Shown piece by piece: positions 7,831-17,074 of a stretch of DNA of 40,646 nt. The stretch is from a virus (lineage: Duplodnaviria > Heunggongvirae > Uroviricota > Caudoviricetes), in the IMG/VR virus record IMGVR_UViG_2675903413_000001, positions 1 through 40,646 of that record; one strand, 5' to 3'. Numbering within the stretch: the first letter of the stretch is position 1; the number at the start of each line of letters is the position of its first letter. The notes beneath the pieces are model-generated. The model saw only the letters and a program-made list of their open reading frames with translations. It was not told where the DNA came from and did no database searches. The translations under genes were made by a program, and so were the position numbers.

Positions 7831-8478
7831 TTACCCAAACGTCTCTTCAGGCCACTGAGCCTTAACTACCTTGCCTATGATTCGGCAGCTATGGTCGCAA
7901 TCCAGGGTTCTGTATGCCGGGTTTAAAGGCACCAGGTAACTAACCCCTGCATCCTTCTCATACTTCTTGAACGTTGCCTCTGAATCACCATTTGCAGAAG
8001 CTACGCAGAAATCCCCAGACTCTACCGGCTCGGCAGGGTCTACGAGTATTAGCATACCCTCAGGAAAGCTCGGCCTTACGCCCTGTGGCGCAGTCATAGA
8101 ATGGCCTTTCACCTCAAGCCAGAAAGCTTTTTCGCTGGCTTTTGTGGTCGTTGGGACCCATGCCTTTGCATCGCTGGCTGTGTAGCTTCCCACCTCCGAA
8201 AACGGCCCGGCCTGCACTGAAGAAAATAACGGGTACTCATATTGGCGAAATACGGCGTCTGAATCCTCGCCAAACATTATTTTTGCCGGAGATACGCCGA
8301 GTGCCGCCCCAAGAACCAGCGCGTCATCCGCGCTAACCTTTCTTGTTCCTAACTCGTAGTTACCCAGGCGTGAAGGCGCAGCCCAGCCGCAAAGCTTGGC
8401 CAATTGAGCCTGGCTAAGTCCTTTAGCTTCTCTAAGGGACTTGATCCTTTCCCCGATAATTTCATGCATCGTTTTCAT
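7831..8478 (-). CDS. cI: CI/C2-type prophage repressor (HTH plus LexA-like S24 peptidase domain)
   Basis: 215 aa; N-terminal HTH ([11 protein letters not shown]), C-terminal domain with GDSM and catalytic Lys region typical of autocleaving repressors; divergent from cro. Confidence 0.85.
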
Positions 8479-14775: not shown

Positions 14776-15418
14776 TGGCAGCAAATACCGAAATATTTGG
14801 GTAGTTGGCGATCTGCACGGATGCTACACGAACCTGATGAAAAAACTGGAGACGATAGGATTCGACACCAAAAAAGACCTGCTTATCTCGGTTGGCGATT
14901 TGGTTGATCGCGGTACAGAGAACGTCGAATGCCTGGAATTAATCACATTCCCCTGGTTCAGAGCTGTACGTGGAAACCATGAGCAAATGATGATTGATGG
15001 CTTATCAGAGCGTGGAAACGTCAATCACTGGCTGCTAAATGGCGGTGGCTGGTTCTTTAATCTCGATTACGACAAAGAAATTCTGGCTAAAGCTCTTGCC
15101 CATAAAGCAGAAGAACTTCCGTTAATCATCGAACTGGTGAGCAAAGGTAAAAAATATGTCATCTGCCACGCCGATTATCCTTGTGACGAATACGAGTTTG
15201 GAAAGCCAGTTGATCATCAGCAGGTAATCTGGAACCGCGAACGAATCAGCAACTCACAAGACGGGATCGTGAAAGAAATCAAAGGCGCGGACACGTTCAT
15301 CTTTGGTCATACGCCAGCAGTGAAACCACTCAAATTTGCCAACCAGATGTATATCGATACCGGCGCAGTGTTCTGCGGAAACCTCACATTGATTCAGGTA
15401 CAGGGAGAAGGCGCATGA
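14753..15418 (+). CDS. ninI: Ser/Thr protein phosphatase (lambda NinI-type)
   Basis: Metallophosphatase motifs GDLHGC, GDLVDRG, GNHE; start MRYYEK. Confidence 0.85.
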
Positions 15419-16038
15419 GACTCGAAAGCGTAGCTAAATTTCATTCGCCAAAAAGCCCGATGATGAGCGACTCACCACGGGCTACGGCTTCTGACTCTCT
15501 TTCCGGTACTGATGTGATGGCTGCTATGGGGATGGCGCAATCACAAGCCGGATTCGGAATGGCTGCATTCTGTGGTAAGCATGAACTCAGCCAGAACGAC
15601 AAACAAAAGGCTATCAACTATCTGATGCAATTTGCACACAAGGTATCGGGGAAATACCGTGGTGTGGCAAAGCTCGAAGGAAATACTAAGGCAAAGGTGC
15701 TGCAAGTGCTCGCAACATTCGCTTATGCGGATTATTGCCGTAGTGCCGCGACACCGGGCGCAAGATGCAGAGATTGCCACGGTACTGGCCGGGCCGTTGA
15801 TATTGCCAAAACAGAGCAGTGGGGGAGAGTTGTCGAGAAAGAGTGCGGAAGATGCAAAGGCGTCGGCTATTCCAGGATGCCAGCAAGCGCCGCATATCGC
15901 GCTGTAACGATGCTAATCCCAAACCTTACCCAACCCACCTGGTCACGCACTGTTAAGCCGCTGTATGACGCTCTGGTGGTGCAATGCCACAAAGAAGAGT
16001 CAATCGCAGACAACATTTTGAATGCGGTCACACGTTAG
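15415..16038 (+). CDS. Q: Late-gene antiterminator Q (lambda-type)
   Basis: 207 aa, reads as lambda Q by recollection ([19 protein letters not shown]...), Cys-rich zinc motif. Confidence 0.85.
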
Positions 16039-16080
16039 CAGCATGATTGCCACGGATGGCAACATATTAACGGCATGATA

Positions 16081-16109
16081 TTGACTTTTTGAATAAAGTT
16101 GGGTAAATT
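16081..16109 (+). promoter_or_regulatory. Late promoter PR' (-35 TTGACT, 17-bp spacer, -10 TAAATT) with qut region
   Basis: ttgactttttgaataaagttgggtaaatt immediately downstream of Q, as in lambda. Confidence 0.65.
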
Positions 16110-16143
16110 TGACCCAACGATGGATAAATGCACTCGTTAAATA

Positions 16144-16176
16144 AAGCCCTGAGTTAATAGCTCGGGGCTTTTTCAT
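16144..16176 (+). terminator. tR'-like rho-independent terminator about 30-60 nt downstream of PR' start
   Basis: 9-bp stem AGCCCTGAG/CTCGGGGCT with one G-U pair, followed by TTTTTCATTT. Confidence 0.6.
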
Positions 16177-16525
16177 TTCTGCAATCCGGTCAGGACCTTC
16201 GAGTTAATGCGTGCTGCACGACACGTTGACACTCATACGCGAGAGTCCTGAGTCAGATTGAAGGCTATCAGGTAAGAGCATATCGACGCACTGATAGGGC
16301 TGGATTGGAAGATCATTCAGAGACCCGGCAGACAGATGTGTTCTTTCCGATGGTTTTCGTAAGCGACTTTGCGGTTTTTTAGAAACTGATCACAAAGATA
16401 AATGCAAACGAAGAAATGTATCTGGCCGTAGCTTAACCGCTAAACACCAGTGAGGTATTCCAGTTCCTCATCAACGAATCTGGCGCACTGGCCCGGTGTG
16501 ATTAATAATGGGCACACAACGGAAA

Positions 16526-16608
16526 GAGCATTACTGGTGACGGAGACTAGCGATTAGCTATATGCGAAAGTTCTAGAAGCCAAGGCGGTTCGACTCCGCA
16601 AGTGCTCT
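16526..16608 (+). other. tRNA-like fragment: canonical T-arm GGCGG-TTCGACT-CCGC and 7-bp acceptor-like pairing, but no canonical D or anticodon arm found
   Basis: ggcggttcgactccgca at 16584..16600; gagcatt (16526..16532) pairs with agtgctc (16601..16607); internal arms do not fold as tRNA. Confidence 0.3.
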
Positions 16609-17074
16609 TTCAGTTGTGGTGAATACGCAGGCTGATGCGTTAATCAGGTGAACGAGACACCCGCCGGTCCGTGATATGGCACACCGTGCCGGTCATATCT
16701 GCCGCGGTTAGGTTTACGAGGATTTCGTAAAGCTGGTCTAGGGTGAAGCCGTGAAAGCGGAGGAAGTAAAACGAGGCGTCGGTACACGCCTATCGTCATT
16801 AAGTCGGAGTTCAGCACCGACCGCCACAACCCAAACTGGGCCGTAGCCACTGGCTATCCTGAATTCATCAGTGATAGTTATGCTGCGGCTTTCTACACAT
16901 GACCTTCGTGAAAGTGGGTGGCAGGAGGTTGCGCTAACAACCTCATGCCGTTTTGCCCGTGCATATCGGTCACGAACAAATCTGATTACTAAACACAGTA
17001 GCCTGGATTTGTTCTATCAGTAATCGACCTTATTCCTAATTAAATAGAGCAAATCCCCTTATTGGGGGTAAGAC

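Follow-up and report, generated by a model that had tools for sequence, protein, structure and literature searches.

A tmRNA-like tag template and an arm complementary to host tmRNA in the Q-to-S interval of a lambdoid phage

The stretch of DNA analysed here (the window) is the whole of IMG/VR record IMGVR_UViG_2675903413_000001, 40,646 nucleotides (nt) from a phage of the lambdoid/P22-like type. Between its gene Q and its holin gene S lies an interval, 16186..17074, in which a sequence-only reading had noted an RNA element with a transfer RNA (tRNA)-like T-arm, possibly a decayed tRNA gene or an insertion scar. That reading missed a second module, 70-230 nt upstream of the T-arm and with its core at 16351..16513, which combines a tag template resembling that of transfer-messenger RNA (tmRNA, the product of ssrA) with an arm antisense to the tmRNA of the host. 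Its features are as follows.

16351..16381, + strand: antisense arm, three colinear blocks against nt 68-106 of Escherichia coli tmRNA (alignment, duplex energy)
16351-16360, + strand: arm block 1, TGGTTTTCGT, complementary to ssrA nt 97-106
16363-16368, + strand: arm block 2, GCGACT, complementary to nt 86-91 (A86-C91)
16369-16381, + strand: arm block 3, TTGCGGTTTTTTA, complementary to nt 68-80
16382..16403, + strand: A-rich linker of 22 nt ending in the resume context ATAAAT
16404..16436, + strand: tag-like frame GCA AAC GAA GAA ATG TAT CTG GCC GTA GCT TAA, encoding ANEEMYLAVA and a stop, with no start codon
16422..16450, + strand: H5-like hairpin with the stop codon in its loop (covariation, e.g. 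column pair 112/138: GC 31, AU 21)
16451..16483, + strand: pseudoknot A (99% paired; CG 33 / UA 29, GC 45 / AU 17 and others)
16486..16513, + strand: pseudoknot B (column pair 179/202: CG 44, GC 11, UA 7)

The frame is of the kind found in E. coli tmRNA, whose tag is ANDENYALAA. As in the host RNA (U85, A86), the resume context has U at -5 and A at -4, and ARAGORN takes the homologous 'aataaatgcaaacgataa' as its tmRNA resume consensus; the element thus has a resume codon with its upstream determinants, followed by a short tag frame that lacks a start and ends in a stop. In all 128 elements of a first scan the frame consists of ten codons plus a stop, and the tags of other members include ANDDVVLMAA, ANDEQFLAVA, ANDNVFLAVA and ANDNTFLAVA. 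The aligned members all carry ATAAAT and then GCA AAC GA, an invariance of AN(D/E) that is partly an ascertainment effect of the first scan, which required ATAAATGCAAACGA. A second scan, anchored on pseudoknot B only, returned the same architecture and the same kind of frame, with ACAAAT, GTAAAT or CAACT before GCA, with tags such as ANDNYALAAA and ANDSEMRVAA (AAT for Asn), and with one ACA mutant that is probably dead.

Variation within the frame is codon-like. Pairwise differences at codon positions 1, 2 and 3 number 2018, 1725 and 3355, respectively, and the ratio of synonymous to nonsynonymous changes, counted over single-nucleotide codon differences, is 452:901 in the GCA frame versus 61:1742 and 206:1407 in the other frames. 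The last tag position uses all four Ala codons, and CTG/TTG for Leu and AAC/AAT for Asn also vary. These computations show codon-like selection on a frame that offers little to conventional initiation: an in-frame stop lies seven codons upstream of GCA, in 79 of 86 non-redundant members the codons from the upstream in-frame stop to GCA include no ATG, GTG or TTG, and a Shine-Dalgarno-like motif is present in a single member of the 86.

The stop codon and the sequence 3' of it are structured much as in a tmRNA, with the stop enclosed by an H5 hairpin and with pseudoknots following the frame, although these number two and not three. The H5-like hairpin has an outer stem (16422-16425/16447-16450) and an inner stem (16429-16432/16439-16442). 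In pseudoknot A, TGAGG (16451-16455) pairs with CCTCA (16466-16470) and the loop sequence CCAG (16460-16463) with CTGG (16480-16483); in pseudoknot B the helices are CACT (16486-16489)/GGTG (16495-16498) and GCCC (16491-16494)/GGGC (16510-16513), and longer covarying versions are seen in relatives. In the scanned loci the search patterns dictated the pseudoknot B loop TGATTAATAAT, but it is also kept in six BLAST-derived sequences. An all-pairs covariation screen was dominated by lineage effects, and a test of the named structure (the two-helix hairpin and two H-type pseudoknots) on an alignment of 62 diverse members was used instead. In this test 93.6% of cells are paired and 17 of 25 pairs have changes on both sides (175 cells); none of 500 shuffles was as good, and controls in which the partner was slid were 25-48% paired.

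To compare the arm that precedes this template with E. coli K-12 ssrA, the 62 nt upstream of the resume context were aligned, locally and with gaps, to the reverse complement of that gene. In 80 of the 86 non-redundant members the best alignment falls on nt 68-106, with scores of 22-42 against a shuffled mean of approximately 15 (z up to 13.8) and 12-18 in a sense-strand control. This target spans the resume codon and tag codons 3-6 of host tmRNA. Within it, arm block 2 faces A86 and bases 1 and 2 of the resume codon, and nt 68-80 are, as we take it from the published tmRNA structure, inclusive of the 3' strand of pseudoknot 1 (PK1); nt 79-107 are presumably single-stranded in free tmRNA, given its established structure. 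The duplex of the window arm is predicted at -37.1 kcal/mol versus -14.8 +/- 3.2 (minimum -26.6) for 500 shuffles when restricted in extent; 70-nt arms against full-length tmRNA (RNAduplex) gave a shuffle background of about -40 kcal/mol. Plain blastn of the interval against E. coli ssrA yields short matches only, the antisense relation being clear only with gapped alignment, and the same search finds no sense-strand similarity beyond the first 13 nt of the frame.

Divergent lineages have different arm sequences, all of them complementary to nt 81-91 and 97-106. The main type consists of GCGACU and UUGCGGnUUUUUA; the arm of SSU5 and of some divergent members (L255, L258, L259) is GCGACUGUUUU, contiguous with nt 81-91 and with a G.U pair at U85; the Felix O1-type arm is GCGuCUAUUUU, and one Vi01-like arm has an AGG variant; Salmonella tmRNA probably reads GAA ACC. 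Over the arm 10-mer around AGTTTTCG, 9.4 of 10 positions match the host and 6.8 of 10 match the frame of the element itself, which argues that the arm tracks the host and not its own template. The complement of AAACG, a sequence common to host and phage frames, is deleted in most arms (e.g. those of the window and of L099), and this deletion would leave the phage frame single-stranded. The tmRNA target is nearly invariant in 120 genomes of Enterobacterales and Pasteurellales, a set whose tmRNA loci include no Salmonella ssrA.

The module is flanked by further hairpins and by the genes and signals of the late region.

15415..16038: lambda-type Q (open reading frame list)
16081..16109, + strand: PR'-like late promoter TTGACT-17-TAAATT (alignment to lambda and HK620)
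16143..16180, + strand: tR'-like intrinsic terminator, a 13-bp hairpin (16143..16171) and a T-run
16263..16355, + strand: upstream hairpin module, GGTAAGAGCAT (16271-16281) with ATGTGTTCTTTCC (16336-16348) and a cassette of ~55 nt between them
16515..16618, + strand: long 3' hairpin, stem CACAAC-GAAAGAGCATT with AGTGCTCTTTC-GTTGTG (fold, compensatory stem versions)
16533-16600, + strand: variable tip cassette of the long hairpin, holding the T-arm here (fold)
16625..16640, + strand: small hairpin ACGCA-GGCTGA-TGCGT, kept after the long hairpin in many unrelated phages
17075: start of holin gene S

The T-arm that had drawn attention to the interval, GGCGG-TTCGACT-CCGC at 16584..16600, does exist, with 4 bp (16585-16588/16596-16599), a G.A pair and a 7-nt TTCGACT loop. 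The acceptor-like pairing described beside it, 16526..16532 with 16601..16607, is likewise real and extends into a 17-bp helix, in which 16515-16520 and 16522-16532 pair with 16601-16611 and 16613-16618 (minimum free energy -40 kcal/mol, z = -2.9). We agree that canonical D and anticodon arms cannot be folded: neither ARAGORN nor an Rfam search of the interval (RF00005, E<=10) gave a tRNA, and the fold is no cloverleaf but a helix of 17 bp with a single long, irregular arm and a T-arm of 4 bp.

The stem of the long hairpin occurs in compensatory versions, among them CACAACAGGTAATGGC / GCCATTACCTGTTGTG, TACCCACGGTTGAAAG / CTTTCAACCGTGGGTA and AATATTCTAAAGAGCA / TGCTCTTTAAAATATT, and its tips are of unrelated sequence and range from 5 to ~150 nt, the T-arm being one such tip. 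The evidence for the stem is this list of versions and not a 16-mer statistic; an ungapped 16-mer scan gave 13.9 pairs versus 12.5 for shuffled sequence, a modest separation because of bulges. A 111-nt piece, 16515..16625, recurs at 94-98% identity in six phage records, which represent four phages not otherwise related: swi2 (two records), a 47.6-kb E. coli phage of the genus Swiduovirus; PGN829.1 (two records), which is N4-like; Klebsiella phage GP-1; and Enterobacter phage Mulvp2. Such identity in unrelated phages points to a conserved unit and not to decay. The suggestions of a decayed tRNA gene and of an insertion scar are therefore not supported, since no tRNA model matches and the cassette is conserved and is one of many alternative tips on a covarying stem; that the interval is non-coding, an insertion hot spot and the site of a T-arm-bearing RNA element does stand. 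A T-loop motif lies within 150 nt downstream in 18 of the 86 members, in a stretch that can include adjacent real tRNA genes, and upstream of the template in 5. The 3' hairpin is best explained as a structural or processing module with exchangeable tips, not as a tRNA.

The upstream module (fold -32.4 kcal/mol, z = -3.2, 0 of 200 shuffles as good) is of the same kind as the module that carries the T-arm, and its 3' strand directly precedes the arm in 37 of the 86 members. The small hairpin at 16625..16640 covaries, with GCGCA...TGCGC in most relatives, and lies just inside a part of the interval that matches CUS-3 from 16597 onwards. Comparison of L066 with PhiSH19 (L005), both Kuttervirus relatives, reveals an extra ~100 nt with a T-arm (GGGAGGTTCGATTCCTCCC) just after pseudoknot B in the former, which suggests that T-arm cassettes move as units.

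Searches for a tmRNA proper were negative. ARAGORN finds neither tRNA nor tmRNA in 16186..17074, and for the window and 127 of the 130 scanned loci it reports no tmRNA of either the standard or the permuted form. Its tmRNA calls among these loci are a true E. coli ssrA control and L009 and L105; the latter two were rejected as spurious, resting on real tRNAs or giving a nonsense tag, and the only permuted (two-piece) call, in L105, is made from real tRNA genes. No Rfam family reaches its gathering score at the element, tmRNA families scoring 8.8-30.7 bits against gathering scores of 47-84. tmRNA models do recur as sub-threshold matches in the window, L010 and L255, the best of them being permuted tmRNA models, and L009 has a weak match to the general tmRNA model only (13 bits).

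A one-piece tmRNA would have a tRNA-like domain. The helix beside the T-arm has G3-C70, U73 and no CCA; most members have no T-arm, and Felix O1-type members end in a plain hairpin abutting a tRNA gene. Where a T-arm module lies upstream of the template, the strand that follows it and the one that follows the downstream T-arm have the same sense and are thus unable to pair. We also considered a hidden tRNA-like domain closed by AGTGCTC/GAGCATT (G3:U70-like in one register), and rejected it: no T-arm precedes its 3' strand, there is no CCA, and the upstream strand is absent in members with their own promoter. Because the tRNA-like domain, the defining feature of a tmRNA, was sought and not found, we do not regard the element as a member of the tmRNA family.

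Expression of the element in the window appears to depend on Q. The PR'-like promoter at 16081..16109, followed by a lambda-like qut sequence (HK620 is annotated with pR' and qut), is the sole promoter-like site found upstream of the element, and the only Rfam matches at 16143..16180 are sub-threshold ones of terminator type. With a tR'-like terminator in this position, all sequence 3' of 16180 needs Q antitermination. In 30 of the 86 members GTTTTC is preceded, at a distance of 7-12 nt, by the end of a strong sigma-70 promoter (TTGACA-17-TAGATT or TATAGT), so that the RNA would begin with the arm; since no such promoter is seen in the window, its RNA must come from the Q-antiterminated late transcript.

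The interval that surrounds the element bears out the description of it as non-coding. The + strand of 16186..17074 has no open reading frame of 60 aa or more, the longest being 50 aa (16871..17023), then 35, 31 and 25 aa; one 68-aa frame on the - strand (16644..16850) has no PHROG match. The 50-aa frame, just 5' of S, matches phrog_22751 (unknown function, E = 3e-29), and similar small frames are annotated as hypothetical proteins in phage Huey; since it sits in DNA kept as leader in lambda, phrog_22751 may consist of over-called reading frames. Positions 16041-16639 are ~93% identical to HK620 and HK633, and 16597-17074 ~98% identical to CUS-3 and Huey. The alignment with lambda covers 34% of the interval, namely the PR'/qut end and the last ~260 nt before S, so that colinearity with lambda, which had been named beforehand as part of what would overturn the sequence-only reading, does not obtain. 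Judged by these alignments, the Q-to-S interval is a mosaic. In Stx phages, tRNA genes occupy the same Q-S interval.

Several further observations concern the remainder of the leader. Just after the long hairpin, 16612-16620 (GTTGTGGTG) is complementary to 16822-16830 (CGCCACAAC), ~200 nt downstream, with covarying counterparts in lambda (GTTGTGCTG ... CAGCACAAC) and swi2 (GGTGTGGTG ... CACCACAAT), and the rest of the leader may thus be a single, larger domain of structured RNA in competition with the base of the long hairpin. The CA-rich sequences CACACAAC (16513-16521) and CCACAACC (16824-16832) resemble the GcvB R1 target consensus CACAACA, and GTTGTGGTG resembles the GcvB seed. The same consensus is mimicked by AgvB, an anti-small RNA (anti-sRNA) of a prophage of enterohaemorrhagic E. 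coli (EHEC) (PMC4104026). Elsewhere in the window, ARAGORN predicts a tRNA-Ala (anticodon CGC) at 8198-8280 on the - strand, opposite to the late genes.

The element is widespread among phages. Sensitive blastn of 16180-16640 finds similar sequence in up to 719 phage records, the shared part being ~16340-16530, and the carriers include lambdoid/P22-like, P1-like, SSU5, T1-like, Felix O1-like, Vi01-like and N4-like phages, Kuttervirus (PhiSH19), Schitoviridae (FSL SP-058, PGN829.1) and Klebsiella phages of ~46-48 kb (e.g. BUCT610). By megablast it is present in 135 of 5426 complete E. coli genomes (~2.5%); in two E. coli prophages inspected it lies between Q and the holin gene. In Felixounavirus PHB11 it sits within a tRNA cluster, flanked by tRNA-Ile and tRNA-Arg and on the same strand as the tRNAs, and in SSU5 and a P1-like phage it adjoins tRNA-Asn. 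None of the records inspected annotates it as RNA; they carry nothing at this place, or a 'hypothetical protein'.

Some of these loci show details of their own. In swi2 (L009, 1287-1900) the element appears to head a small RNA operon in the order promoter, element, ~180 nt of structured sequence, tRNA-Met and terminator. The P1-like phage MH445381.1 (L274, 1185-1450, 1805-1895) has a divergent member, with the tag ANDDLMMVAA, between the dmt methylase gene and tRNA-Asn/tRNA-Thr, and a hairpin module with a GAGGGTTCGAATCCCTAC T-arm cassette immediately after tRNA-Thr. P1 is reported to have a third tRNA in this area, to which the T-arm module may correspond. In FSL SP-058 (L007) the GenBank tRNA coordinates are offset by ~1.1 kb from the ARAGORN and Rfam positions, which looks like an annotation error.

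Conservation, secondary structure, codon-like selection and complementarity to tmRNA, with no detectable tRNA-like domain, are the computed properties for which a mechanism has to account. We tentatively favor the reading in which the phage RNA, once docked on host tmRNA, hides the host template and brings in a tag encoded by the phage. In a fuller version, which we hold a shade more loosely still, this RNA family would provide the coding piece for a tmRNA whose parts are divided between two genomes, hybridizing to the host molecule and silencing its template while the host tRNA-like domain and SmpB deliver the phage tag. A template that looks translated, the lack of a tRNA-like domain and an arm suited to tethering and masking together make a swap of templates the most economical reading.

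Under this proposal the interval would encode a stable non-coding RNA as part of the Q-dependent late transcript, ~250-300 nt in length and with (A)GAUAGUUUUCG at its start; the lambdoid version would be a processed species, its 5' and 3' ends near 16350 and 16620, and in virulent phages the same RNA would arise from its own promoter or within tRNA clusters. In host tmRNA the 5' arm would cover the 3' strand of PK1, the determinants at -4..-1, the resume codon and codons 3-6 of the tag, and this pairing would mask the host template. On its 3' side the RNA would offer what a template needs, that is UA at -5/-4, GCA, a 10-codon frame, an H5-like stop hairpin and two pseudoknots, and the alanine-charged tRNA-like domain of host tmRNA would, with SmpB, carry the docked template of the phage into stalled ribosomes. 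The polypeptides so rescued would receive AANEEMYLAVA in place of AANDENYALAA, the outcome being a two-piece tmRNA to which the phage and host genomes each give one piece. Residues of the ssrA tag bind SspB and ClpX. The phage tags keep the AND start and the C-terminal Ala, replace NY by MY, VV, QF or VF and ALAA by LAVA or LMAA, and, because they are altered at the SspB- and ClpX-binding residues, the fate of tagged proteins may differ.

A number of points weigh against this proposal. Every functional step in it, from docking in vivo through use of the frame by ribosomes to a benefit for the phage, is one that we infer from sequence. We know of no precedent for a template given in trans by hybridization to tmRNA, and both the loading of such a template by a ribosome and a benefit of the altered tag (LAVA or LMAA versus ALAA) are matters of conjecture. 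The distance from arm to resume codon varies from ~15 to 22 nt among lineages, and the ascertainment of AN(D/E) by the first scan, noted above, also tells against it. The complementarity could in part be inherited from an inverted duplication of a captured ssrA, and the target region is so conserved among the 120 tmRNA genes that a test for phage-host covariation has no power.

The main rival, which we consider unlikely, is that the RNA is a pure antisense inhibitor or sponge of host tmRNA, its arm sequestering the resume region or triggering RNase III cleavage, so that trans-translation is shut down or titrated, and its tag frame either a relic that is not translated or a decoy directed at SmpB or the ribosome. 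The complementarity of the arm is the strongest single signal that we have and, as would be expected of a sponge, it is extended, conserved and beyond chance towards a host non-coding RNA; phage and prophage anti-sRNAs exist (AgvB, PMC4104026), and, according to a passage in a tmRNA survey, molecules with a tRNA-like domain only have been reported to inhibit tmRNA (PMC4131195, citing Mao 2009). A relic, however, should neither stay at ten codons plus a stop in 128 of 128 elements nor vary synonymously, and it should not keep a resume context, an H5-like hairpin and covarying pseudoknots. Antisense inhibition accounts for the arm, but not for the codon-level constraint.

That the element is instead an autonomous, unconventional phage tmRNA, one-piece or permuted, with the T-arm hairpin or an adjacent tRNA serving as its tRNA-like domain, is improbable. 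The 3' hairpin of the window does join an acceptor-like helix to a T-arm whose TTCGACT loop is canonical; in some relatives the template is directly preceded by a T-arm module or directly followed by a tRNA; and permuted-tmRNA models are the best sub-threshold Rfam matches. Yet a T-loop is present downstream in only 18 of 86 members and upstream in 5, the Felix O1-type hairpin is plain, G3-C70 stands where G3:U70 would be expected, no CCA is encoded, the helix runs to 17 bp, ARAGORN finds no tRNA-like domain, and the arm would be left unexplained.

We give about as little credence to a cis-acting late-leader element, concerned with processing, stability, antitermination or translational control of S, whose likeness to tmRNA is fortuitous or historical. 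In temperate phages the module is indeed always on the late strand, downstream of Q/tR' and upstream of S; the hairpin module and other leader structure are kept in lambda and CUS-3, and the 16612-16620/16822-16830 pairing covaries in lambda. Against this, the module also occurs with its own promoter, and in the tRNA clusters of virulent Felix O1-, Vi01-, N4- and T1-like phages it is far from lysis genes. A decayed tRNA gene or functionless insertion scar is very improbable and largely refuted already, for although a T-arm-like hairpin adjoins a helix and the tRNA genes of Stx phages fill the same interval, the sequence matches no tRNA or tmRNA model, is 94-98% identical in unrelated phages, has a covarying stem and neighbors a module under strong structural and codon-level constraint. 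No better is a conventionally translated micro-frame, whether the overlapping MQTKKCIWP* frame, which opens with an ATG 2 nt before GCA in the +1 register, or the GCA frame read from a non-canonical start, since the +1 frame varies in length (7-9 codons) and has the 61:1742 ratio, and 85 of 86 members lack a Shine-Dalgarno-like motif.

Bacteria rely on trans-translation as their main pathway of ribosome rescue and quality control; it is a drug target, and we know of no virus that re-programmes it. If the proposal is right, it would amount to a viral re-coding of bacterial ribosome rescue and of the degradation tag; docking and template replacement would be a new use of tmRNA and a new class of phage counter-measure or take-over, as well as a natural tool to change the tag in vivo. 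Even as an antisense inhibitor, the element would be the first phage-encoded RNA against tmRNA, and it would be an unannotated gene in several long-studied model phages and their relatives (HK620 and P1-like, Felix O1-like, Vi01-like, N4-like and T1-like phages). Some lambdoid/P22 hybrid phages reportedly depend on host tmRNA, an old observation on which the element might bear.

Among known systems, the lambda Q-S leader and the tRNA and stx cargo of Stx phages share its slot downstream of PR'-tR'. Lambda and CUS-3 have in common with the window the long-hairpin module and the last ~260 nt before S, and lack the antisense arm and the tag template; unlike the Stx-phage cargo, the interval of the window has no real tRNA gene by ARAGORN. 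The lambda RNA PreS/LPR1, which lies between ea10 and ral, was ruled out as the element by its location. The EHEC prophage anti-sRNAs AgvB and AsxR (Tree et al. 2014, PMC4104026) are alike in being phage-borne and in pairing with an abundant host non-coding RNA, but they are short and Hfq-dependent, imitate a target site in an mRNA, lack both pseudoknots and a coding-type frame, and are directed at GcvB and FnrS; as a short Hfq sRNA, AgvB was likewise ruled out as the element. In openly searchable papers, as distinct from subscription-only ones, searches that included the tag peptides as strings returned no prior description of the element and no phage RNA antisense to tmRNA.

Phage genes derived from tmRNA are known. 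An exhaustive tmRNA survey reports ssrA in mycobacteriophages Bxz1, Cali and others and in Bacillus phage G, and a gene for the tRNA-like domain only in DS6A, which illustrates that a partial tmRNA can be kept by a phage; it lists no phage of Enterobacterales (Hudson, Lau and Williams 2014, PMC4131195). These are complete tmRNAs or the tRNA-like domain alone, whereas the present element is the converse, a template only, joined to an antisense arm. The two-piece tmRNAs of alpha- and beta-proteobacteria and cyanobacteria (RF01849, RF01850, RF04321), which supply the best sub-threshold Rfam matches, are similar in logic, with a coding piece separate from the aminoacylated piece and joined to it by base-pairing. 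Both of their pieces, however, come from one gene and are paired via the acceptor stem and P2, while the phage element encodes no acceptor piece and its pairing would be to the template region of a complete host tmRNA. With the tmRNA of Enterobacterales (SsrA; RF00023, clan CL00001) it shares a GCA resume codon after U(-5)A(-4), a 10-codon tag with an Ala-Asn-Asp/Glu start and an Ala end, and a stop in an H5-like hairpin loop followed by H-type pseudoknots; it differs in having no tRNA-like domain, no G3:U70, no CCA and mostly no T-arm, in having two pseudoknots after the frame and not three, and in the antisense arm that takes the place of PK1. As far as its putative functional steps can be read from sequence, the element appears to fall in no known tmRNA family.

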